Source of the DNA: Nitratidesulfovibrio vulgaris str. Hildenborough
GTDB lineage: Bacteria > Desulfobacterota > Desulfovibrionia > Desulfovibrionales > Desulfovibrionaceae
DNA length: 32,000 nucleotides
Reading direction: 5' to 3'
Assembly (NCBI RefSeq): GCF_000195755.1
Contig: NC_002937.3
Location: 2,370,001 to 2,402,000, forward strand
The notes under the pieces were generated by a model that worked only from the letters and a program-made list of their open reading frames with translations, made no database searches and had not been told where the DNA came from. A program made the position numbers and the translations under genes. Numbering within the stretch: position 1 is the first letter of the stretch; every line of letters begins with the position of its first letter. Below are positions 2,404 to 15,631 of the stretch, piece after piece.

Positions 2404-3954
2404 ATGTCCACCACGCCCGCACGCATTGCCATTGCGCTTGCCATCGCACTTTGTGCAAGTGTGTTCATCTTCATCGGCGGACAGGTGCTCACACTTGCTG
2501 ACATGGCTGGGCGTATCCACCCGTTTTTCGGCGACATCGTATTCTGGACGGGTATGGGGGCCATGCTTGCGGCACTGGGCTGGCTGGCGGCGACCTATCT
2601 CATGCGGCCCCGCCAGCTTGAACTGCCAAAGGACGACACGCCTGAAGCCCTCGCCGACTACAGACGTGCCCTTGAGACACGGTTGCGCACCAACCCCCAC
2701 CTGCGTGGTGAAGAGGTGCCTGCCGCCTCTGCCGACGGCGTTCCCCACTCCCTTGAAGACCTGCTCTCACACCTCGATGCCGCCGCCCTGCGCGAGACCA
2801 GACGCACGGCATCACGCATCTTTCTCACCACGGCCATCGCCCGCAACGGCAGACTGGACACCCTCATCGTCCTCGTACTGCTGGCCCGCCTCGTCTGGCG
2901 CATCTCGGCCCTCTACGACAGCCGCCCGCACCCGCGGGCGCTGGTTCGCCTGTACCTCAACGTCGCCGGCACGGCCCTCGCCGCCGGGGCACTGGAGGAT
3001 GCAGGACTCGAAGACCACATCCACGCCCTGCTCACGCCGCTTCTCGCCGCATCGCCCATGACATCCGTACCCGGCATATCCGGTGTCGGCACGGTGCTGA
3101 CCGCCTCGCTCGTCGATGGTTCCGCCAACGCCCTGCTGGCCCTGCGGGTCGGCATCGTCACGCGCAACCTGCTCTCGCCGCCGTTGCCGGGAATGCCCGA
3201 ACGCCCCAACCCCTACCGCGAGGCCTCGGCACTGCTTGTCCGCATGTCGGGCGGACTCGTCCGCAAGGTGATGAAGGCGGCGATGAGCGGCCTCACCTCC
3301 GGACTCACGGACAAGGCGCGCCGCGCTGCGGATGCGGTGCGGCAGGGAATGCGTGGCAAAGGCTCCCGCAAGCACACGGACGAGACCACGCACGCCGCAG
3401 CAGGCCCGGAACGGACTGCCCCTGCACAAGATGCGACGAAGCCGGCAGCGAATGATGCGGCACGCCTGCTGCCAAGACAGTCGGCATCACGACCGGCGGG
3501 TTCGGATTCCGGCATGGAACCCCCTGTCCATGTGACCACGACGGATTCGACGACACCGTCGCCACAATCGGCCCGTCCGGTCGTGCGGCGGCCCTCAGGG
3601 CGTCGTGATGTCTCGCAGGCCGCCTACAGGGCCGTGCCTCTTCACGATGCCGAAGCCGGGCCCGCACCCAGCGTCCCCTCCGAGGCCGACGACGCGACAT
3701 GGGAGCGCATAGGCCCGTTACCCGGCATCACCCGCATTGAGGAGAGGCCCGAATCGACCGACGGCCGGGGCGATGTCACGCGTGGGCCTCGTCCGGGAAC
3801 GCATACAGGCAGGACAGCAAAGGCGGGACGCCAAGAAGAGTCCGGAACAGCCGACCGGACGGATATGGCCGATGCCCCGGAAGACGCGCCCCGGGCATTC
3901 TCGCCAGCAAGAAGGCTGCTGCGGTCGCTGCTCCTCAAACGTCGCCAAGGCTGA
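2404..3954 (+). CDS. Membrane protein, probably DUF697/YcjF-like, with a long Ala/Pro/Arg-rich disordered C-terminal half
   Basis: AGGAGA lies 6 nt upstream of ATG 2404. There are two N-terminal TM helices. The segment TTAIARNGRLDTLIVLVLLARLVWRISALYDSRPHPRALVRLYLNVAGTALAAGALED resembles the DUF697 core as I remember it. The last ~230 aa are low complexity. The family call is from memory only. Confidence 0.7.
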   Translation: MSTTPARIAIALAIALCASVFIFIGGQVLTLADMAGRIHPFFGDIVFWTGMGAMLAALGWLAATYLMRPRQLELPKDDTPEALADYRRALETRLRTNPHLRGEEVPAASADGVPHSLEDLLSHLDAAALRETRRTASRIFLTTAIARNGRLDTLIVLVLLARLVWRISALYDSRPHPRALVRLYLNVAGTALAAGALEDAGLEDHIHALLTPLLAASPMTSVPGISGVGTVLTASLVDGSANALLALRVGIVTRNLLSPPLPGMPERPNPYREASALLVRMSGGLVRKVMKAAMSGLTSGLTDKARRAADAVRQGMRGKGSRKHTDETTHAAAGPERTAPAQDATKPAANDAARLLPRQSASRPAGSDSGMEPPVHVTTTDSTTPSPQSARPVVRRPSGRRDVSQAAYRAVPLHDAEAGPAPSVPSEADDATWERIGPLPGITRIEERPESTDGRGDVTRGPRPGTHTGRTAKAGRQEESGTADRTDMADAPEDAPRAFSPARRLLRSLLLKRRQG

Positions 3955-4290
3955 CCACGCAGGGCTACGACATCGGCAGCCGTGCCCGTCATGATGTCCG
4001 ACCGCCAGAGAGCGCCCGGCGCAGATGCCGCCACGCCCCAGAGACCCCGTCGCGAGGCCCCATCGGCAAGAGATGGCAGCCCTCGTAGGATAGGGTCCGC
4101 CCCTTTCATGGCATTGCCCGCAGCAGCCCCGTGACCGGCCTGTCGTTGCCTGTCCCGCCACCTGCCTCCCTGCATCTCTGTCTGTCGGTCACCCCGCAGG
4201 GCAGATTTGATGCCTGCGGCATCCTGTGCTAGTGAAGCCGCCTTATCCGTCCCCCCCTCGTGGAAGTGGCTACCAAGGAGGATGTGCCGC

Positions 4291-4803
4291 GTGTACAAAT
4301 GGCTTCGAGTGTTGCTGGAACTGTTGCCGCTACAGGTGTTCGCCCTGTCGTGGAGGCTCGAAGGGGCGACGGCCCCCGGCGGGTGGCAGCTTCCCTATGG
4401 CCTTGCAGCACTCACGGCTGTCGTCTGCATCGGCATCCTCGTCTGGCGCAGGGTATTGCTCGACAGGCTGCTCCTCGGCGTCAATGCCGCCATCATCCTC
4501 GGGGCACTCGGCCTCTACTGCGGTACGCCGGGTCTGCCGAAACTGCTCGCCGATATTCGCGGGGCTGGCGTCTTCGCCGTCGTGCTTCTTACCGCGGGTG
4601 TGACATACCTTGCCCGCCCTGCCGCCCTCCTCGATTTCGAACGCGGCACATGGGAACCATGGGACAGGTACATGCTGCTTGCCGTGTTCATCGCCTTCTG
4701 GCTGGCCTTCGCCACGCGAGAGGAACCCCTCGTGGGGGCCATGCTGCTTGGCGCGCTTTTCGTGGTGCGCACCATGCTACAGCAGGCCGCCCGCCGCTGG
4801 TGA
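4291..4803 (+). CDS. Small polytopic membrane protein, unknown function
   Basis: The track ORF is 4207..4803. AAGGAGG (4275-4281) abuts ATG 4282 with zero spacing but sits 9 nt before GTG 4291, so I prefer 4291 (4282 remains possible). The product has about 5 hydrophobic helices. I recognise no family. Confidence 0.55.
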   Translation: MYKWLRVLLELLPLQVFALSWRLEGATAPGGWQLPYGLAALTAVVCIGILVWRRVLLDRLLLGVNAAIILGALGLYCGTPGLPKLLADIRGAGVFAVVLLTAGVTYLARPAALLDFERGTWEPWDRYMLLAVFIAFWLAFATREEPLVGAMLLGALFVVRTMLQQAARRW

Positions 4804-5161
4804 CCCCTTCTTCGCCGTTCCAGCTTCTCCGCAGGGCCACCAGGCGCCCTCTCACGACAGCACCCGACCACATACCCCCTACCACGTGACCCGCCCACGA
4901 GAATCGGCCCTCGCCCCTTTGCCCTTCCTCCTTCGTATGACGATGCCCACCATGGGGGACATACCCTGACCGCAGGTGATGGCGTCTCAGTCTGATTCAG
5001 CCTCTTCCGTCAACGCCCCATGCACCTCCACCACCAAGCCCTTGGCGGCGTAGGCCGAAACAGATGAAGGCCGCCTCTCGACGCCGTAGACGCGTTGCAA
5101 GGCCACGACGGGTATCGACCTACGGAAAGAGACACATCCAAGGCGACCTCTCGCCATACGA

Positions 5162-5189
5162 AAAGGGCCGCCCCGAAGGACGGCCCTTT
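5162..5189 (-). terminator. Rho-independent terminator downstream of the lactate permease
   Basis: AAAGGGCCG (5162-5170) pairs with CGGCCCTTT (5181-5189) around a 10-nt loop. On the minus strand the stem is followed by TTTTCGTAT. It lies about 37 nt after the lctP stop (5226-5228). Confidence 0.65.
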
Positions 5190-5225
5190 GTTGTCTCCGC
5201 GTGCTGCGGCGTGCGCCTTGCAGCA

Positions 5226-6746
5226 TCACCCCTGCAGCATGTGCAGGTACGGAATGGCCACGTAGACCAGCGTCCCGAGAATGAGCACGTAGCCCACGCA
5301 CACGGCCAGCGTGCGGTTCATGATGCGCCCTTCGGAACCGACAAGGCCGGTGGCAGCCGTGGCAACGGCGATGGACTGGGGCGAGATCATCTTGCCAGCC
5401 GTGGCACCTGCCGCCGAAGCAGCCACGATCCATGCCCGGTCGATGCTGATGCGGTTCGCGACCTCCATCTGCAATTGCCCGAAAAGGACATTGGAGGATG
5501 TGTCGCTACCCGTCACGAAGGTTCCCAGCGCACCAAGCAGCGGGGCTATGAGCGGGAAGTAGCTGCTGGTGGCATCCGCCACGGCCACAGCGAGGGTGTT
5601 GATCATGCCGCTGGATGCCATGACCTTGGCAAGGGCGACGATGGAGACCACCGTCACTGCCGAGAAGGCGAGCTTGCGGGCCGTCTTCACGAGCACCCCG
5701 GTTATCTCTCCGAAACGGACGCCCTGAATCATGCCGCCAAGGTAGGTGGCGATGATGATGAGCGAACCGGGTGTCGCCAGCCATTTGAAGGTGAACGGCG
5801 TGTCACCGTGGATGACGACGGTGGTCTTCACCGCCCCCAGTGTGTCCTTGATGAGCGGAAAGAGGTTGCTGCACAGGATGATGAAGCTGAAGACGAAGAT
5901 ATAGGGCAGCCATGCCTTGACCTTGTCCGCGGTGGGCAGGGGCTCGGTTTCTACAGCGGCGGTGTCGCGGTGGAAGATGCGCGCCCAGACGATGGTGGCG
6001 ACCATGCTGCACACGCTGCCGATGAGGCAGGGCAGTTCCGCCCCCATGTACTTGGCGGTGTAAAGCTGCGGCAGCGCGAAGGCGACCCCGGAGACGAGCG
6101 TGGCCCAGAACACCCCGCGGATGCCCTTGAAACCTGCCGTGAGGATGACCAGCAGGAAGGTGATGAGGATGATGAACACCGAAAGCTGCAACGCGGTGTA
6201 GTAGCTGATGGTCTCTACGGGCAGCCCGGTGACGCTGGCCATGGTGACGATGGGAATGCCGATGGCGCCGAAGGCCGTGGGCACGGTGTTGGCCACGAGA
6301 CAGATGACAGCGGCGAACATGGGCTGAAAGCCCATGGCGGCAAGGATGCTGGCGGGGATGGCCACTGCTGTGCCATAGCCTGCAACCCCTTCGAGAAAGC
6401 CGCCAAAGCCCCATGCGACGATGAGGACAAGAAGGCGCTTGTCTGTGGTGATGCCGGAAAGCATACGTGTGATGACATTCATGCTGCCCGTATGCTGCGC
6501 CAGATTATAGGTGAACACGGCGGCGACGATGACGACCATGATGGGCCACAGGCCGAGGGCCGCCCCTTCGAGGGCTGCCGTGCCTGCCGAAAGCGGGGCC
6601 ATGTGCCAAGGGCCGAAGACGGCGATGCAGACCGTGGCGGCAAGCGTCAGGGCGCATGTCCTGTAGGCGGGCAGTTTGAGCACGATGAGCGAGAAGATGA
6701 GCCAGACTATCGGCGACAGCGCGAGAACAAGTTGCATTGAATCCAT
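5226..6746 (-). CDS. lctP: L-lactate permease (LctP family)
   Basis: Collinear similarity to E. coli LldP as I recall it, e.g. GLWPIMVVIVAAVFTYN, WGFGGFLEGVAGYGTAVAIPA and NTVPTAFGAIGIPI. The track ORF extends to 6989, but that extension is non-hydrophobic. I set the start at ATG 6746 (MDSMQLVLALSPIVW...); ATG 6737 is also possible. Confidence 0.92.
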   Translation of the reverse strand: MDSMQLVLALSPIVWLIFSLIVLKLPAYRTCALTLAATVCIAVFGPWHMAPLSAGTAALEGAALGLWPIMVVIVAAVFTYNLAQHTGSMNVITRMLSGITTDKRLLVLIVAWGFGGFLEGVAGYGTAVAIPASILAAMGFQPMFAAVICLVANTVPTAFGAIGIPIVTMASVTGLPVETISYYTALQLSVFIILITFLLVILTAGFKGIRGVFWATLVSGVAFALPQLYTAKYMGAELPCLIGSVCSMVATIVWARIFHRDTAAVETEPLPTADKVKAWLPYIFVFSFIILCSNLFPLIKDTLGAVKTTVVIHGDTPFTFKWLATPGSLIIIATYLGGMIQGVRFGEITGVLVKTARKLAFSAVTVVSIVALAKVMASSGMINTLAVAVADATSSYFPLIAPLLGALGTFVTGSDTSSNVLFGQLQMEVANRISIDRAWIVAASAAGATAGKMISPQSIAVATAATGLVGSEGRIMNRTLAVCVGYVLILGTLVYVAIPYLHMLQG

Positions 6747-6811
6747 ATCATACCCGAAGAGTGACAAGGGTTGCGTGACATGCCCGCAAGTGCGGGAAGC
6801 GGCCTCACATT

Positions 6812-6828
6812 CTGTTTGGTCAATCAAG
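6812..6828. promoter_or_regulatory. Copy 1 of exact 17-bp motif CTGTTTGGTCAATCAAG (candidate operator), 66 nt upstream of the lctP ATG
   Basis: Identical to 7240-7256 in the same DNA orientation. The core TTGGTCAATCAA is a near-palindrome (TTGGT/ATCAA). Confidence 0.5.
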
Positions 6829-6990
6829 GAATGCAAGGCGAGTACACGTCCCCTCGGGCTTGCGTCAAGTCGAACGCACAGCCGCACGGCGTCATGGAAG
6901 CATAGCGTGCCAGCAGGACATGACCACCGCGCCTCGTCATTGCGCCACTCGTCCGTAGTGAGTGCCGACATCCGCAGTGCGAGCGCCACA

Positions 6991-7288: not shown

Positions 7289-10200
7289 ATGCAACCAGCA
7301 CCAACTCTGTTCGACCTGCCCTTCATGGTACAGGCTGGCATAGTGCTGCTATTCTGGGGCACGCTGGCAGCCATCGCTGCGCGGCGTCGCCTTGACGCGC
7401 TCATCGGCTACGGGGCTGTGGCCGATGCGGGCATCGCGCTCATCGGTTTCGGCCTCGGTTCAGCCACGGCGACGACGGGGGGCATCCTCTTCGCAGCCTT
7501 CCAGTGTCTTGCACGGCTACTTGCCTACGGTGCCCTGCGCCCGCTGATGTCCAAGGCGGGTTCTGCCGAAGCCGACGCCCTGCGGGGCATACGCGAAGCC
7601 ATGCCCGCCAGTGCCGTGCTCTATGGTTTCGGTATGTTCGCGGCACTGGGCATCTCCCCTTTTCTCGTGCCGGAAGGGAGAATGCTGGTCACGGCAGCCG
7701 CCGTGCAGTCGGGCGGGCTGCTGCTGCCCCTGCTCATGGCGCTGTCGGCAGCCATCATGGCATGGCTCACCGTGGTCGCCACGCAGACCGTCTGTCTTGA
7801 ACACGGCCCGTGGGAAGCCTCAGGCATCACCCCCGAACGCCTCCCCCTGCACCTCGCCCCTGTGGCGCTTGCTGTAGCGGGATGCGGCATAGGGGGACAC
7901 GCCCTCATGGTGGGTGCCGCAGCATTTCTCGGGCATGCCCCCGAATCGCTTCCCGCACTGGCTGACGGATGGCACCCGGCGGCACTCGTCCCCTACGCGG
8001 GGGCTTTTTGCGTCTGGGCGGCTGGTGGCGTGGCACGCCCCTTCCGCAGCATCCTCGCCGTGGTGCTTGCGGCTGCGGCCCTTGCGCTGGCATGGCACGG
8101 CGCGGGACTCGACCCCCTCGCACGGCTCTTCGCCGTCATCACCGGGGGCGTCTGCCTCGCCGTCACGGCCTACTCCGTAGGGTACATCACACACGCCCGC
8201 CACAGTTCCGGCTACTACTTCTTCCTCATGATCATGACGGGGTCGCTGATGGGCCTCGTATCCACACGCTCTTTCGGCAGCTTCTACGGCTTCTGGGAAC
8301 TGATGACATGGTCGTCGTACTTCCTTGTCGTGCATGAAGGCACCCCCCGCGCCTTCCGCGCCGGTGTGAAGTACTTCGTCATGTGCGCTGCGGGTGCGAT
8401 GTTCATGCTTCCCGGGCTGCTCATGCTCACCAACGGTGGTTCGGCAGACTTCGACGCCGTGACCACAGCCGTGCGCCAACTCGACCCCATGCTGCTCAAG
8501 GCCGCCCTGCTGCTCACCCTCGCAGGCTTCGCGGTCAAGGCCGGTTTCGTGCCCGTGCACGGCTGGCTGCCCGACGCCCACCCCGTGGCCCCGTCCTCCA
8601 TCTCCGGCCCGCTGTCGGGCCTGCTGACCAAGACCGGCATCTACGGCATCGTCCGCGTCCTGTTCGCTATATGCGGCATGACCGTGCTGCTGCAGACCGG
8701 CGAAGGCATCGCAGGCATCTCGTGGATGGGCGCGGCGGTGACGACGCTGGGCGTGCTCACCATGGCCTACGGCGAAGTCATGGCCTTGCGGCAGGACGAC
8801 ATCAAGCGCCTGCTCGCCTATTCCACCATGGGCCAGATCGGCGAAATCGCCACCATCATCGGCCTTGGCACATGGTTGTCGACCACGGGCGCGCTCGCCC
8901 ACGTGCTCAATCATGCCATCATGAAGAACCTGCTCTTCCTCTGCGCAGGTGCGCTGGTCATGCGCGCGGGTCGCAAGCTTGAAGACCTCGCGGGCATGGG
9001 CCGCATGATGCCGTGGACGGCGGGCTGCATGATGGTGGGTGTGCTCTCCATCATGGGCATGCCGCCCTTCGCCGGATTCGCCAGCAAGTACCTCATGCTT
9101 CAGGGCGCGGTGCAGGCCGGGCACCCCGAACTCGCCGCCGCGCTTCTGCTGGCGAGCCTTGCCGGGGCCGTGTACTACATGCGCATCATCCGCGTGCTGG
9201 TCTTCATGCCCCGCAAGGGACATCCGGTGCAGGAAGCACCGTGGGCCATGCGCCTGCCCATGCTGGTGCTGGCGGGCCTTTGCGTGTTCCTCGGCATCGC
9301 GCCGCAGTACGGACTCGCCCTCGTGACCCCCGTGGCCGACATGCTGGTGGCAGCAGGCAACCTCGCTCCGCAGACCCTGCCCTCGCTGACCGTAAGCTGG
9401 CCCCCCTATGTGGTGCTGACCATGCTCGGCGCGGCACTGCCCGCCCTGTTGCGTCACGACCGCAAGCTGGCCGGATGGGCCACGGCCCTCGTCCTGCTGG
9501 TTGCCGCAGTGGTCGCCGCCTTCACCGGGCGCGACCTCGACATGCTCTCGTACGGCTTCGTGCTGACAGTCGCTGTCATCGGCTGCCTCAACATGGTCTA
9601 CGCCGTGGGCTACATGGAACACAGCCACACCCAGTGGCGGTTCTACACGTTCTTCCTCTTCATGGTGGGGGGCCTCATGGGTGTGGCGGCAAGCCGCGAC
9701 CTGTACAGCTTCTTCACCTTCTGGGAGATCATGAGTTCGTGGAGTCTCTACTGCGTCATAGTGCATGAGGAGTTCCCGGAGGCACTGCGCGAAGGCTTCA
9801 AGTACTTCTTCTTCAACGTGCTGGGGGCGGCCTTCATGTTCCTCGGCGTGGTGCTGCTCACCGCAGGCGCCGGCAGCCCGGCCTTCGACGCCGTACACGC
9901 TGCCCTGCCCTCCATGCCCGTCGGACTCTCCGCCACCGCGGTGGGCCTCATGGTGCTGGGCCTCGTCATGAAGGCGGCGCAACTGCCCTTCCGCATCGAC
10001 GTGCAGATGCACCCCGCCACCGCGCCCACGCCGGTCTCGGGTTACATCTCCTCCGTCCTGCTCAAGAGCGCGCTCTTCGGCCTCGCCAAGCTGCTGCTGG
10101 CCCTTGGCGGCGGCGCAGTGCTGGTGCAGGCCGCCGGGTTCACCGACGGCATCGGCCTCATGCAGGTCGTGGCGTGGGTCGGCGGCATCACCATCGTCAT

Positions 10201-11050
10201 GGCGGCGCTTCTCGCCGTCCTGCAATCCGACCTCAAGCTGGTGCTCATCTACTCCACCGTGAGCCAGCTGGGCTACATGGTGCTGGCCTTCGCCCTCGGC
10301 ACGCCGCTGGGCATGGCAGGGGGCCTGCTGCACCTCGCCAACCACGTGCTGTTCAAGGACCTGCTCTTCCTCGTGGCGGGCGCACTCATCCTGCAGACGC
10401 ACAAGCACTCGCTCGACCAGCTTGGCGGCATAGGCCGCAAGATGCCGGTGACGCTGGGCGTCTTCGCCATCGGCGCACTCTCCGTCGTGGGCGTGCCCCC
10501 CACCAACGGTTTCACCTCGAAATGGATCATCTACCACGCCCTCATGCAGCAGGGTGAAGTGATGCTCGCCATCCTCTCGCTGGTGGGAAGTGTGCTGACG
10601 CTGGCGTACTTCGCCAAGTACCTGCACGCCGCCTTCCTCGGTCAGCCCTCGCCCGACATCGACCACGTGCAGGAGGCCCCGCGCGTGATGCTGGTGCCCA
10701 TGCTCGTCCTCGCTGCGGGTTGTGTCGTCACCGGCTTCTTCCCCGGCCTGCTGCTTGCGCCCATCGCCACCATGCTGACGGCCCTCGGCCTGACCGCGCC
10801 CGAAGTCGCCCCGTGGGGCCTCGCCAGCGGCGCAGGCGCATGGAACGCCACCGCGGTTGCGGTACTCGCCACCGTGGCCGCAGCCTTCGGCTGGGGCATG
10901 CTGCGCCTGCTCACCCGCGACAGCCGGGTGACGACGGTGCACACCTGCGGTGTCGACCTCGGCCGTGACGTGGCCCGCATGAACTCCGGCAGCATCTACG
11001 GCGCGCCCGTGGCCCTGCTGCGCGGCATGACCGCCTCCAAGGAGCGCTAG
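7289..11050 (+). CDS. cooM: CooM, large membrane subunit of the Coo [NiFe] hydrogenase (two fused NuoL/M/N / Mrp-antiporter-like modules)
   Basis: The track ORF starts at TTG 7076. I set the start at ATG 7289, which follows GGGAGATTAGG. The protein is very hydrophobic. Antiporter-type motifs occur twice: WLPDAHPVAPSSISGPLSGLLTKTGIYG and LKRLLAYSTMGQIG in the first half, MHPATAPTPVSGYISSVLLKS and LKLVLIYSTVSQLG in the second half. Confidence 0.9.
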   Translation: MQPAPTLFDLPFMVQAGIVLLFWGTLAAIAARRRLDALIGYGAVADAGIALIGFGLGSATATTGGILFAAFQCLARLLAYGALRPLMSKAGSAEADALRGIREAMPASAVLYGFGMFAALGISPFLVPEGRMLVTAAAVQSGGLLLPLLMALSAAIMAWLTVVATQTVCLEHGPWEASGITPERLPLHLAPVALAVAGCGIGGHALMVGAAAFLGHAPESLPALADGWHPAALVPYAGAFCVWAAGGVARPFRSILAVVLAAAALALAWHGAGLDPLARLFAVITGGVCLAVTAYSVGYITHARHSSGYYFFLMIMTGSLMGLVSTRSFGSFYGFWELMTWSSYFLVVHEGTPRAFRAGVKYFVMCAAGAMFMLPGLLMLTNGGSADFDAVTTAVRQLDPMLLKAALLLTLAGFAVKAGFVPVHGWLPDAHPVAPSSISGPLSGLLTKTGIYGIVRVLFAICGMTVLLQTGEGIAGISWMGAAVTTLGVLTMAYGEVMALRQDDIKRLLAYSTMGQIGEIATIIGLGTWLSTTGALAHVLNHAIMKNLLFLCAGALVMRAGRKLEDLAGMGRMMPWTAGCMMVGVLSIMGMPPFAGFASKYLMLQGAVQAGHPELAAALLLASLAGAVYYMRIIRVLVFMPRKGHPVQEAPWAMRLPMLVLAGLCVFLGIAPQYGLALVTPVADMLVAAGNLAPQTLPSLTVSWPPYVVLTMLGAALPALLRHDRKLAGWATALVLLVAAVVAAFTGRDLDMLSYGFVLTVAVIGCLNMVYAVGYMEHSHTQWRFYTFFLFMVGGLMGVAASRDLYSFFTFWEIMSSWSLYCVIVHEEFPEALREGFKYFFFNVLGAAFMFLGVVLLTAGAGSPAFDAVHAALPSMPVGLSATAVGLMVLGLVMKAAQLPFRIDVQMHPATAPTPVSGYISSVLLKSALFGLAKLLLALGGGAVLVQAAGFTDGIGLMQVVAWVGGITIVMAALLAVLQSDLKLVLIYSTVSQLGYMVLAFALGTPLGMAGGLLHLANHVLFKDLLFLVAGALILQTHKHSLDQLGGIGRKMPVTLGVFAIGALSVVGVPPTNGFTSKWIIYHALMQQGEVMLAILSLVGSVLTLAYFAKYLHAAFLGQPSPDIDHVQEAPRVMLVPMLVLAAGCVVTGFFPGLLLAPIATMLTALGLTAPEVAPWGLASGAGAWNATAVAVLATVAAAFGWGMLRLLTRDSRVTTVHTCGVDLGRDVARMNSGSIYGAPVALLRGMTASKER

Positions 11051-11053
11051 ACC

Positions 11054-12019
11054 ATGCAAGACATCCTTGTCGCCCTCTTCCATATGATCGTCTTCCCGGG
11101 CGGTGCGTTCGCGCTGACGCTGGGGCTTCTGCTCAAGGGACTCGACCGCAAGGTCGAGGCCCGCTTGCAGCGCCGCGTGGGGCCGCCCATCGTGCAGCCC
11201 TTCATCGACCTCGTGAAGCTGACCACCAAGGAGACGCTCATCCCGGCCACGGCCAACCGCACCTTCTTCCTTGCCGCGCCGCTCATCGGCTTCACGGGCA
11301 TGGCGGTGTGCGCGGCCTTCATCCCCGTTCCCGGCGTCTATGACGGCATGCCGGGCATGGGTGACATGCTGGTGCTGTTCTACCTGCTGCCCCTGCCTGC
11401 CATCGCGCTCATGGTGGGCGGGTCGGCGTCAAGCTCGCCTTTCGGGGCCATCGGCTTCTCGCGCGAGATGACCATGATGCTGGCCTACGAGATTCCGCTG
11501 CTGGCCGTCCTGCTGGCGGTGGCGCTCAAGGTCGGTCACGCCACGGGCGTGGGGGCCGAACTCTCGCTGGCCTCGGTCGTGGCCTACCAGGCAAGCACGG
11601 GGATGCTCGGACTCGACCCGGTGATGCTGCCCGCGCTGCTGGCCTACCTGCTCTTCCTGCCGGGAACGGCCGGTGTGCCTCCCTTCGACATCCCCGAAGC
11701 GGAGACCGAGATCATCGAAGGCCCGCTGCTGGAATACTCCGGCCCCGCTCTCGGCTTCTTCCATCTCGGCGCGGCCCTGAAGACCGTCGTCGTGCTGGGC
11801 CTTGGCGTGGCGATGTTCTTCCCCGGCACCGTCCCCGGCGGCATCGTGCCCAACGTGCTGTGGTTCGCCGCCAAGTGAGCGGGCCTCATGCTGCTGTCGC
11901 TGACACTGGTCAAGGCCGCCACCGGCCGTTTCCGCATCGATCAGGCGTTCACCTTCTACCTCAAGCTGCCCACCCCGCTGGCCATGGCGAGTCTCGCCCT
12001 GGCGTGGCTGGGCTTTTAG
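11054..12019 (+). CDS. cooK: CooK, NuoH/HycD-like membrane subunit. The frame is interrupted by an in-frame TGA at 11876-11878 (Sec recoding, split gene or pseudogene unresolved).
   Basis: AAGGAG lies 9 nt upstream of ATG 11054. Conserved motifs include RLQRRVGPPIVQPFIDLVKL and PFDIPEAETEIIEGPLLEYSG. The track ORF ends at the TGA after 274 aa. The same frame continues for 46 codons (AGLMLLSLTLVKAATGRFRIDQAFTFYLKLPTPL...) to TAG 12017-12019, which gives the family-typical C-terminus and about 321 codons. Confidence 0.85.
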
Positions 12020-12031
12020 GGAGACCCGGCA

Positions 12032-12466
12032 ATGAACCTGGTCAAGAAGCTCGCCGTACGCTCCCCGTGGTTGTACCGCATCAACGCCGGATCATGTAAC
12101 GGCTGCGACGTGGAGCTTGCCACCACGGCGTGCATTCCTCGCTACGACGTGGAACGGCTCGGTTGCAAATACTGCGGCAGCCCCCGCCATGCCGACATCG
12201 TGCTCATCACCGGGCCCCTCACCGCCCGCGTGAAGGACAAGGTGCTGCGCGTGTGGGACGAGATACCCGCCCCGAAGATCACCGTGGCCGTGGGCATCTG
12301 CCCCGTCAGCGGCGGCGTCTTCCGCGACGGCTACCCCATCGAGGGGCCGCTCGACCGCTACATCCCCATCGACATCAACGTGCCGGGGTGTCCGCCCCGT
12401 CCGCAGGCCATCATCGAAGGCGTCGTCAAGGCGCGCGACCTGTGGCTCGAACGCATAGGAGGCTGA
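12032..12466 (+). CDS. cooL: CooL, NuoB-like hydrogenase small subunit (proximal [4Fe-4S])
   Basis: GGGAG lies 8 nt upstream of the ATG. The NuoB-type Cys pattern is present: GSCNGCDVE, GICPVSGG, PGCPPRP. Confidence 0.93.
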   Translation: MNLVKKLAVRSPWLYRINAGSCNGCDVELATTACIPRYDVERLGCKYCGSPRHADIVLITGPLTARVKDKVLRVWDEIPAPKITVAVGICPVSGGVFRDGYPIEGPLDRYIPIDINVPGCPPRPQAIIEGVVKARDLWLERIGG

Positions 12467-12467
12467 C

Positions 12468-13103
12468 ATGTTCGGATTCCTCAAGGTTCTCGCCCGCAAC
12501 GTGCTGAAGGGTCCCTCAACCGACCCCTTCCCCTTTGCCGAGGCCCACACCCCCGCCCGCTTTCGCGGTCAGGTGCGTCTCGACCCGGCACTGTGCGTGG
12601 GCTGCGCCATCTGCCACCACGTCTGCGCCGGGGGTGCCATCAACATCGCCGAACGCGAGGACGGCAGCGGCTACGACTTCACCGTGTGGCACAACACCTG
12701 CGCCCTGTGCGGCCTCTGCAGGCACTACTGCCCCACCGGCGCCATCACCCTCAGTAACGACTGGCACAACGCCCACCTGCAATCGCAGAAGTACGACTGG
12801 TGCGAACGCCAGTTCGTTCCGTTCATGCAGTGCGAAGGCTGCGGTGCGCACATCCGCCCGCTGCCGCCGCAACTGGCGGCCCGCGCCTACGGTCCCGGCG
12901 GCTTCGACTTCGCCTCGTTCATGCGCCTTTGCCCCTCGTGCCGCCAGCTGGCCGCCGCCCGGGCGGACGTGCATATCCCCGAAGCCTCGGCCATGCCCGC
13001 AGCCCCCGCAGGCCACGCCGACGAACCCGCCATCCGCGAAGGTGACGCCACCGCCGTCACGGTCAAGGGCGACGAGACGCCCGCCACGGGAGTACAGCAA
13101 TGA
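12468..13103 (+). CDS. cooX: CooX, 2x[4Fe-4S] ferredoxin-like subunit (NuoI/HycF-like) with a C-terminal extension
   Basis: AGGAGG lies upstream of the ATG. There are two CxxCxxCxxxCP-type motifs: CVGCAICHHVC and CALCGLCRHYCP. An extra Cys-rich segment plus an Ala/Pro-rich tail follow residue ~110. Confidence 0.88.
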   Translation: MFGFLKVLARNVLKGPSTDPFPFAEAHTPARFRGQVRLDPALCVGCAICHHVCAGGAINIAEREDGSGYDFTVWHNTCALCGLCRHYCPTGAITLSNDWHNAHLQSQKYDWCERQFVPFMQCEGCGAHIRPLPPQLAARAYGPGGFDFASFMRLCPSCRQLAAARADVHIPEASAMPAAPAGHADEPAIREGDATAVTVKGDETPATGVQQ

Positions 13104-13645
13104 CCACCATGCCCGACAATGCCCTCACCGCCCCCCTCGCCACCGCACTGGATGCGCTGGCAGAGGCGGAAGGCTTCACCTGGACGCGTGATGCCCACGG
13201 CAACGCCTACGGCTGGCTGCGCCTCGCCGAACGCGACACCCTGCCTGAAGCGGCGCGCCTGCTGGCCGAAGGTGGAGCGCGCCTTGCCACCGTCACCGCC
13301 TACGACCCCGTGCGCGAACCCGGCGTGCCCCGTCAGGAGATAGCCTACCACTTCGACGTGCACGGCACGACGCTGACCGTCACGGTGGTCCTCGACCCCG
13401 AATGCCCGTCGGTGCCCTCCATCACCCCGCACTTCCGCAACGCCGACTGGAACGAGCGCGAGTTCATGGAGATGTACGACATCGCCGTACCGGGCCACCC
13501 GAACCCCCGCCGCCTGTTCCTCGACGAGAAGCTCGATGCGGGCATCATGAACACCATCATCCCCCTTTCGACCATGACCAACGGCGCGTCCACGCAGAAC
13601 CTGTGGGAACGCATCCTCGCCGCGCGCCCCGGAGACAAGGCATGA
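13100..13645 (+). CDS. cooU: CooU, NuoC-like (30 kDa-type) subunit
   Basis: ATGA start/stop overlap with cooX. The NuoC-type motif NADWNEREFMEMYDIAVPGHPNPRRLFL is present. Confidence 0.9.
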   Translation: MTTMPDNALTAPLATALDALAEAEGFTWTRDAHGNAYGWLRLAERDTLPEAARLLAEGGARLATVTAYDPVREPGVPRQEIAYHFDVHGTTLTVTVVLDPECPSVPSITPHFRNADWNEREFMEMYDIAVPGHPNPRRLFLDEKLDAGIMNTIIPLSTMTNGASTQNLWERILAARPGDKA

Positions 13646-14742
13646 GCACTCCCGACAGCACGACGCAGACATGGACGCTGCCCGTAGGCCCGCTGCATGT
13701 GGCCCTTGAAGAGCCCATGTACTTCAAGCTGGATGTCGACGGCGAAATCGTCCGCAACGTGGAAATCACCGCCGGACATGTCCACCGGGGCATGGAGGCG
13801 CTGGCCATGCGCCGCAACCTGTTCCAGAACATCGTGCTCACCGAACGCGTGTGCTCGCTGTGCTCGAACAGCCATCCCTTCACCTACTGCATGGCAGTCG
13901 AGCACCTCGCGGGCATCGAAGTGCCCGCCCGCGCCGACCATCTGCGTGTGGTGGCGGAGGAGATAAAGCGCACGGCCTCGCACCTGTTCAACGTCGCCAT
14001 CCTCGCGCACATCATCGGCTTCAAGTCGCTGTTCATGCATGTGATGGAAGTGCGTGAGATCATGCAGGACATCAAGGAGACGGTGTACGGCAACCGCATG
14101 GACCTCGCCGCCAACTGCATCGGCGGCGTGAAGTACGACGTGGACGCCGAACTGCTGGCCATGCTGCTTGCCGGTCTCGACAAGGTGGAACGTAACGCCC
14201 GCGAGATATACCGCATCTACGCCTCCGACCCCATGGTCACAGGGCGCACCACCGGCATCGGCGTACTGCCCCCCGACGAGGCACGCCGCTTCGGCGTGGT
14301 GGGCCCCGTGGCGCGAGGTTCCGGCCTTGCCGTCGACGTGCGCCGCGACGTGCCCTATGCCGCCTACCCGCAACTCTCGTTCGATGTGATCACCGAAGAG
14401 GGCTGCGACGTGCGCGCCCGCGCCCTCGTACGTCTGCGCGAGGTGTTCGAGTCCATCTCCATCATCCGCCAGTGCGTGGCGACCCTGCCCGAAGGGGCCA
14501 TGACGGTCATCATGCCGGAGATACCCGCCGGGCAGTCGGTGGCACGTAGCGAAGCCCCCCGCGGCGAGCTCATGTACTACCTGCGCACCGACGGCACCGA
14601 CATCCCCAACCGGCTCAAGTGGCGCGTCCCGTCCTACATGAACTGGGACGCCCTCGGCGTGATGATGCGCGACGCCAACGTCGCCGACATCCCGCTCATC
14701 GTGAACAGCATCGACCCCTGCATCTCCTGCACGGAGCGTTAG
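13642..14742 (+). CDS. cooH: CooH, [NiFe] hydrogenase catalytic large subunit (group 4, NuoD-like)
   Basis: The track ORF starts at 13402. The real start is ATG 13642, which overlaps the cooU stop (ATGA) and follows GGAGA. Ni-Fe ligand motifs are [10 protein letters not shown] (N-terminal) and DPCISCTER (the extreme C-terminus). Confidence 0.93.
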
Positions 14743-14750
14743 GAGAGACC

Positions 14751-15113
14751 ATGCACGAGGCATCCATCGTGGCGGGCATCATGCGCATCGTAGAGGAGGA
14801 GGCCGCACGGCACGACGTGACGCGCATCGCGCGCGTACGTCTGCGAGTGGGGCTGCTCACCGGTGTCGAACCCCGCACCCTCACCGCCTGCTTCGAGCTT
14901 TACAGCGAGGGCACGGTGGCAGAAGGAGCCTCGCTCGACCTTGAGACGGTGCCCGCCCTCGGCACCTGCCACGCCTGTGGCGCGACATTCGACCTGCATC
15001 GGCGTTGTTTCGCCTGCCCTACATGTGGTAACGATGACATAACCCTTGAAGGTGGACGCGAACTGACCATCGCCGGTCTTGAAGTGCCCCAACCCGAAGG
15101 AGCAACAGCATGA
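14751..15113 (+). CDS. hypA: HypA, hydrogenase nickel-insertion/maturation factor
   Basis: AGGAG (14741-14745) precedes ATG 14751. The N-terminus MHEASIV is HypA-typical. Zinc motifs are CHAC...CPTC. The product is 120 aa. Confidence 0.9.
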
Positions 15114-15631
15114 ACCACGAGGAACTCTTCGTCATACAGGCAGAGGCCGAAAAGTGCCGTGCCTGCCGCAAGTGCGAACTGGCCTGCATCGCCTCCCACA
15201 ACAACCTGACCATCAAGGAGGCCGCGAAGAAGCGTACGGTGTTCGCTCCGCGCGTCCACGTGGTCAAGACCGACGAAGTGAAGATGCCCGTGCAGTGCCG
15301 CCAGTGCAAGGATGCCCCTTGCGCCCGTGTCTGCCCCACCCGCGCCCTCGTGCAGGATGATGGCGTGGTCACCATGCGCGCCCAGTTTTGCGCCGCGTGC
15401 AGGCTGTGCATCATGGCGTGCCCGTACGGAGCCATCAGCCTCTCGTTCATCGGCCTGCCCGAAGAGGACGAGGCAGGGGCCATGCATGGCCGCGAAGTGG
15501 CCGTGCGCTGCGACCTGTGCTCCGAATGGCGCGCACGGGAAGGCAAGAGCAGCTGCGCCTGCGTGGAGGCATGCCCCACCAAGGCCCTGCACATGGTCCC
15601 GCTTGCCGAGGCACGCGGCAGACACCAGTAG
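15110..15631 (+). CDS. cooF: CooF-type iron-sulfur electron-transfer protein (4 x [4Fe-4S] motifs)
   Basis: ATGA overlap with the hypA stop, and GAAGGAG lies upstream. Motifs are [37 protein letters not shown] and CDLC...CVEACP. Confidence 0.9.

Follow-up and report, generated by a model that had tools for sequence, protein, structure and literature searches.

The in-frame TGA in cooK of Desulfovibrio vulgaris Hildenborough: probably a strain-specific nonsense allele of a conserved cysteine codon, not a selenocysteine codon

Desulfovibrio vulgaris Hildenborough (DvH) is a model sulfate reducer, and cooK, the gene for the NuoH-like membrane subunit of its Coo hydrogenase, is interrupted by an in-frame TGA, behind which the reading frame stays open. 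The locus raises the question of whether this codon is decoded, as selenocysteine (Sec) or by readthrough, whether the gene is expressed in two pieces, or whether the TGA is a nonsense mutation or an error in the record. These options were left unranked in a preliminary description of the sequence; in the present analysis a nonsense mutation in an otherwise intact operon is favoured, and sequencing error is excluded.

The window, i.e. the whole stretch of 32,000 nt that was analysed, contains on its plus strand a complete Coo-type energy-converting [NiFe] hydrogenase operon (Table 1). Its content is that of Coo/Mbh-type group 4 operons, with antiporter-like, NuoH-, NuoB-, NuoI-, NuoC- and NuoD-like subunits, HypA and a CooF-like ferredoxin, and the same gene order was found by gene calls on the contigs of relatives. 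Both the match to PF00146 and the operon context agree with the earlier naming of the interrupted gene (11054-12019) as cooK, a NuoH-like hydrogenase membrane subunit. Position 11876 of the window corresponds to position 2381876 of the DvH chromosome, and cooK to DVU2287. The start of cooM is ambiguous: the longest ORF begins at TTG 7076 (1324 aa), and gene callers working on identical DNA gave 1241, 1253 or 1267 aa.

Table 1. Features of the coo locus (window coordinates) and stop-removing alleles at codon 275 (contigs of public assemblies); the allele counts are biased by the choice of sequenced projects and are uninformative on natural frequencies
Feature	Position or contigs	Strand	Evidence and remarks
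cooM, double Mrp/NuoL-like antiporter subunit	7325..11050	+	ORF list, family profiles, public gene calls
cooK (DVU2287) 5' part, 274 codons and premature TGA	11054..11878	+	ORF translation; PF00146 NADHdh; 274-aa gene call in public assemblies
In-frame TGA, codon 275, in place of the conserved CooK Cys codon TGC/TGT	11876..11878	+	Sequence, orthologue alignment, Grosskopf et al. 2016
cooK 3' part, 46 codons and TAG	11879..12019	+	ORF translation, alignment to MbhM/NuoH; translated only if the TGA is bypassed
Candidate restart ORF, 43 codons, from ATG 11888	11888..12019	+	Called mechanically as a 43-aa gene in assemblies
Best formal bSECIS-model hairpin	11882..11917	+	Folding, bulges allowed; not distinguishable from background
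cooL, NuoB-like small subunit	12032..12466	+	PF01058
cooX, NuoI-like 2x[4Fe-4S] subunit	12468..13103	+	Family profiles
cooU, NuoC-like subunit	13100..13645	+	PF00329
cooH, [NiFe] large subunit, NuoD-like, 366 aa in public assemblies	13642..14742	+	PF00346/PF00374; gene calls in L001/L004
hypA, nickel insertion chaperone	14751..15113	+	PF01155, TIGR00100; 120-aa gene call
cooF-like 4Fe-4S ferredoxin	15110..15631	+	Family profiles
Allele AAG TCA GCG (Ser) at codon 275	L084-L086		213 blocks in index; NCBI records ADP87265.1, WP_014524497.1
Allele AAG GGA GCG (Gly) at codon 275	L087-L088		85 blocks in index
Allele AAG TCG GGC (GAG deletion, Ser) at codon 275	L089, run ERR1193530		4 contigs in index

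All sequence features listed in the preliminary description are present where it placed them. The cooK frame runs from ATG 11054 to the TGA at 11876-11878 after 274 codons, ending ...NVLWFAAK, and then stays open for 46 codons (AGLMLLSLTLVKAATGRFRIDQAFTFYLKLPTPLAMASLALAWLGF) as far as TAG 12017-12019; the GGGAG at 12019-12023 and the ATG at 12032 belong to cooL; an internal ATG at 11888 is in frame; and two short hairpins, GTCGCTGAC (11896-11904) and GGCC-N6-GGCC (11914-11927), lie behind the stop. With the stop bridged, the product of 321 aa matches the Pfam NADHdh profile over positions 10-296 of 298 (E=7e-65), and aligns to the extreme C-termini of MbhM (6CFW_M, E=5e-41), HycD (7Z0S_D) and NuoH (7NYH_H), so that the tail was rightly described as a NuoH/HycD-type C-terminus. 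It encodes the remainder of a transmembrane helix, the conserved GRFR-IDQ loop motif, aligned with TGRLKISQ of MbhM and PRPRYDQ of NuoH, and the last helix; the peptide FRIDQAFTFYLK comes from this C-terminal part of CooK. Since the bridged product matches both the profile and the C-termini of the solved homologues, the 46 codons are real coding sequence and not an open frame by chance.

The codon which the TGA replaces was identified in two sets of relatives. Cys was found at the column in all of the 119 proteins that could be aligned among the best 120 database relatives. The second set comprised 77 loci from species-representative genomes, of which 73 were aligned at the column and 53 were close CooK orthologues; among the latter the codon is TGC in 31, TGT in 21 and ACC (Thr) in one, i.e. 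Cys in 52 of the 53. Thus, the proposed check for Cys in orthologues gave a positive answer in both sets. The sole close orthologue without Cys, from the MAG Desulfovibrio sp. Md513_bin130 (L053), shows that there is no strict need for Cys even inside the CooK clade. Distant NuoH-like proteins have Met, Ile, Thr, Tyr or Asp at this column, and the equivalent residue in solved homologues is Val in MbhM and Thr in E. coli NuoH. The preliminary alignment of the TGA with the residue right after a conserved Lys is therefore correct as to position, although Cys at that position is confined to CooK proteins. Judging from these alignments, Cys275 is a feature of the CooK clade located within a transmembrane helix, rather than a redox residue of the whole family.

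TGA itself was seen at the column in none of the 73 aligned species loci. For the scan of a metagenome collection a degenerate pattern of 74 nt was derived from the conserved flanks; its TGY version recovers 41 of the 53 close orthologues. In the metagenomes the TGY pattern was found in 72 contigs and the TGA pattern in none. TGA-bearing homologues in other organisms, as are looked for in a selenoprotein, were absent from both sources. The scan of species-representative genomes gave no N. vulgaris locus (best 78% identity), and the comparison within the species was made with Logan contigs and cluster members. On this evidence the TGA is private to the Hildenborough reference lineage.

One rival reading is decoding of the UGA as Sec by means of SelB and a SECIS element inside the CDS, yielding full-length CooK(U275), with the Ser and Gly alleles (Table 1) being Sec replacements that alter the amount or properties of the protein. 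In favour of this reading, the UGA aligns with an almost invariant Cys of CooK orthologues, the GenBank and UniProt entries carry cooK as full length, a hairpin that formally fits the bacterial SECIS (bSECIS) model follows the UGA, and D. vulgaris makes selenoproteins, HysA being one of them. Genes selA, selB, selC and selD, as well as tRNA genes, were not found within the 32,000-nt window, Rfam and tRNA scans of which were empty over its whole length.

The hairpin was evaluated with the bSECIS model of a 2026 review (PMC13188914), as part of the bacterial SECIS check proposed earlier, and the script used for this recovered the genuine SECIS of E. coli fdhF (-14.2 kcal/mol, loop GGUC, spacing 18). 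The strict uninterrupted hairpin, UGUC-GCU-GACA, has a folding energy of -0.8 kcal/mol, which is the background median. When bulges are allowed, a hairpin with the upper stem UGUC/GACA and the loop GCU (11899-11901), which starts with G and lies 20 nt after the UGA, reaches -13.4 kcal/mol and agrees with the model formally. However, 44% of random window positions also pass and 16% score as well, while among the orthologues with an ordinary Cys codon 25 of 53 pass and 17 of 53 score as well as the cooK hairpin. The loop GCU is unusual in comparison with the common G[G/U], and the catalogue of prokaryotic selenoprotein families does not list CooK/NuoH (PMC13188914). Compared with shuffled sequences, the 65 nt that follow the UGA show no gain in folding stability (z=+0.52), and an Rfam scan of 11700-12150 with E up to 10 gave nothing SECIS-like, its sole match, RAGATH-32 (E=2.6), being meaningless. 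The bSECIS model is non-discriminating in this GC-rich gene, and there is no SECIS signal above background.

Comparison within the species shows how the codon has changed. The TGA haplotype was found in identical form in at least ten contigs from separate sequencing runs (L004-L006; 100% identity over 2-6.8 kb). A sequencing or assembly error in the record, for which the general prior for an isolated in-frame stop is the sole argument, was rejected, as the TGA recurs across these independent runs and was also called, as the reference allele, in the resequenced clones of Grosskopf et al., with a frequency near 100% in three of them; the probability of such an error is close to nil. A sister lineage with 99.2% identical DNA (L001-L003) has TGC at codon 275. 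Its cooK gene differs from that of the window at 7-8 sites, all of them synonymous except codon 275, and the 141 nt downstream of this codon are identical, including the hairpin. Hence the undecayed tail, together with whatever RNA structure it may form, is older than the TGA and gives no evidence of selection for readthrough, and the hairpin was not shaped for Sec.

One protein cluster named Nitratidesulfovibrio (Desulfovibrio) vulgaris brings together the product of 274 aa, that of the 43-aa ORF and several forms of 321 aa. Public assemblies contain three stop-removing alleles, namely TCA, GGA and TCG, the last one produced by deletion of GAG; apart from this change, their haplotype does not differ from the window over 3-5 kb. 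Each of them is one event away from TGA and at least two events from TGC. In the most parsimonious history TGC would have changed to TGA once, and the stop would then have been removed independently three times or more, which makes four events, whereas histories in which TGA is not the hub need six; we infer from this that TGA served as a mutational hub. Such varied sense codons, including one for Gly, which has no side chain, are expected if the benefit comes from having any amino acid in place of termination, and this variety is difficult to square with a Sec on which function depends. Moreover, since Ser, Gly, Thr (in L053 and in NuoH) and Val (in MbhM) are all accepted at the position, neither Cys nor Sec chemistry is required there.

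The preliminary description also suspected that the case might be known already, and this is so: the site is covered by the 'putative selenocysteine' database annotation and by a 2016 paper. Grosskopf et al. (ISME J 10:2844, PMC5042321) found the DSMZ stock of DvH to be polymorphic at 2381876 in DVU2287 and showed that deletion of GAG, turning TGA into TCG, marks the syntrophy-competent genotype. Only clones with the deletion grew syntrophically and produced H2 from lactate without sulfate, while clones with TGA only did neither, although they still produced some H2 at 50% sulfate (PMC5042321). The coculture medium in which the TGA clones failed at syntrophy contained selenite (PMC5042321), so selenium starvation is not the explanation for their phenotype. 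In the VCF of that study the change is called stop_lost, p.Ter275_Ala276del, in the 321-codon CDS AAS96760 (PMC5042321), which means that the GenBank annotation reads through the TGA. Grosskopf et al. left open whether the change is a stop loss or a replacement of Sec by Ser, and their speculation favours Sec (PMC5042321). The syntrophic clones carried also an Asp to Asn change in DVU3023 (chromosome position 3142197), a sigma-54 regulator of a lactate-utilisation operon (PMC5042321), and, as this change is fully linked to the one in cooK, the 2016 study does not isolate cooK as the cause. In a 2024 proteome CooK was detected by 3 peptides with 8% coverage, which says nothing on the C-terminus; the selenoprotein HysA ([NiFeSe] hydrogenase) was detected too, indicating that the Sec machinery is active in D. 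vulgaris.

Taken against these data, decoding as Sec appears very unlikely. Its prediction of Cys in relatives held, but it does not sit well with alleles in which Ser or Gly restores or preserves function; TGA occurs at the column in no other genome or metagenome examined, the hairpin is no better than chance and is unchanged in the sister lineage with TGC, four other residues (Gly, Ser, Thr, Val) are tolerated at the position, and the TGA clones are non-syntrophic despite the selenite. A weaker form, in which the UGA would be decoded as Sec with low efficiency through the pre-existing hairpin, making CooK a just-born facultative selenoprotein with Sec at a membrane-embedded, non-catalytic position, is considered very unlikely. 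If true, it would offer a snapshot of the first step from Cys to Sec, with poor expression being 'repaired' by Ser or Gly under selection for syntrophy.

Two further readings involve reinitiation behind the TGA or leaky readthrough of it. Ribosomes might stop at the TGA and start again at ATG 11888, giving a 274-aa and a 43-aa protein that would be partly functional together without residues 275-278. This ATG lies in the same frame 10 nt behind the stop, a spacing that would permit termination-reinitiation, and the tail is intact. However, the SD-like stretch before the ATG (GAG/GGG) is weak, the arrangement exists in no other lineage examined, the intactness of the tail is explained by the recent mutation, and the behaviour of TGA clones, which is that of Coo-deficient cells as regards H2 production and syntrophy, indicates that a split product would be at best poorly functional; we regard the two-piece CooK as highly improbable.

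UGA is the leakiest bacterial stop codon, and its low-level readthrough, for example by Trp-tRNA, might provide a little full-length CooK, so that the allele would be hypomorphic and not null. The H2 that TGA clones form at 50% sulfate is consistent with such leakage, though other hydrogenases could explain it. As a separate account of the locus, readthrough is most improbable; it only modifies the degree of loss and is compatible with the nonsense explanation.

Most probably, then, the TGA is a strain-specific nonsense mutation of the conserved codon for Cys275 and does not encode selenocysteine. The stop stands where relatives have a sense codon, it is restricted to one shallow lineage, the tail behind it is undecayed, and several distinct one-step alleles that remove it occur on the same haplotype. 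The 'putative selenocysteine' annotation of cooK is probably wrong, and the reference Hildenborough genome would carry a nonsense allele. The likely course of events is as follows. One C-to-A change would have turned TGC into TGA in the Hildenborough reference lineage, and translation would now mostly end at codon 274. The loss of about 47 C-terminal residues, comprising part of a transmembrane helix, the GRFR-IDQ loop and the final helix, would cripple or strongly weaken the membrane arm of the Coo [NiFe] hydrogenase. Cells with TGA would respire sulfate normally but release less H2 from lactate than a methanogen partner needs, and any mutation from stop to sense (TCA, GGA or delta-GAG/TCG) would restore full-length CooK and syntrophic growth. 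The truncation would then be the molecular cause of the phenotype, and selection the reason for the abundance of revertants. The downstream 46 codons would look intact only because the mutation is very recent.

In comparison with known systems, the closest case is the polymorphism of Grosskopf et al. 2016 (PMC5042321) itself: the nucleotide, the TGA, the gene and the operon are the same, and the TCG allele was recovered here from ERR1193530. That paper has only the GAG-deletion allele. Added here are the Ser (TCA) and Gly (GGA) alleles, a sister lineage with TGC and the lack of TGA in other genomes and metagenomes, all of which favour a stop-loss reading. In the literature search TCG was the only published allele found at the site; TCA and GGA were not found there. 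The locus resembles Sec/Cys pairs with a SECIS inside the ORF, such as E. coli fdhF, in having UGA opposite Cys, a selenoprotein-making host and a formally model-compatible hairpin 20 nt downstream; unlike them, it has no TGA orthologues elsewhere, its hairpin is at background level, the position is non-catalytic and tolerant, and the TGA clones show a loss-of-function phenotype despite selenite.

As a protein, the bridged CooK is homologous over its full length to MbhM, HycD and NuoH (ND1; PDB 6CFW chain M, 7Z0S chain D and 7NYH chain H) and shares the GRFR-IDQ motif with them, and its operon has NuoB/C/D/I-like and antiporter-like partners like those of group 4 [NiFe] hydrogenases and complex I. 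The solved homologues differ in being uninterrupted and in having Val (MbhM) or Thr (NuoH) at the equivalent of codon 275. The coexistence in one stock of a single-codon null with revertants, which become enriched when the function is needed, is similar to reversible loss-of-function alleles that persist as standing variation in stocks of laboratories and collections. In contrast to switching systems, the cooK site has no repeat tract or dedicated mechanism, and reversion takes place by ordinary point mutation or a 3-nt deletion, so it is no case of programmed phase variation.

In the reference genome, in UniProt and in metabolic models, cooK appears as a full-length, putatively Sec-containing subunit. 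If the reference allele is a null or a hypomorph, the reference strain would be a natural Coo-deficient mutant, and stocks with TGA, TCA, GGA or TCG would differ in a hydrogenase of hydrogen cycling and syntrophy, which would affect the comparability of physiology, fitness and omics data between laboratories. For selenoprotein prediction the case is a caution, as a perfect Cys/UGA alignment together with a model-passing hairpin can stem from a fresh nonsense mutation in GC-rich DNA. The reassessment may serve as useful housekeeping for users of the strain and does not involve a new kind of biology.

Several further observations were made on the alleles. Pre-existing polymorphisms in DvH stocks were reportedly described by Zhou in 2015. 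At codon 275, public runs with the Hildenborough haplotype read TGA, TCA, GGA or, after loss of GAG, TCG; runs with one or another of these four alleles include ERR15700375, ERR5321934, ERR1193524, SRR1290777, SRR3212872 and ERR1193530. The run series SRR11249489-98 contains both the Ser allele TCA and the Gly allele GGA. That the runs with TCA and GGA come from syntrophy-selected cultures of the Dv-Mm evolution project PRJNA248017 is something we infer only from the proximity of SRR numbers, and the supplements of Turkarslan 2021 have no variant call at the codon-275 site. One protein of 348 aa (P0099), encoded on a single 13-kb Logan contig, is identical to the window protein for 231 residues and frame-shifted thereafter, from about window position 11746 onward. 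It reads QVSGPH across GTGAGC, which places it on the TGA haplotype, and may represent a further disruptive frameshift allele or an assembly error.

In the remaining part of the window, four ORFs with high third-position GC (159, 150, 100 and 198 aa), located at 39-1295 and 4207-4803, have no Pfam match at E<=1e-5, and DUF697 is the sole Pfam match of a 516-aa ORF at 2404-3954. A gene for L-lactate permease (PF02652, E=9e-139) lies on the minus strand at 5226-6989, directly upstream of the coo operon and divergent from it; a 558-codon ORF on the strand opposite to it, at 5064-6740, matched no family and would most likely be a shadow ORF of GC-rich DNA. The divergent permease gene is a neighbour that fits the proposed role of Coo in the disposal of electrons from lactate oxidation.
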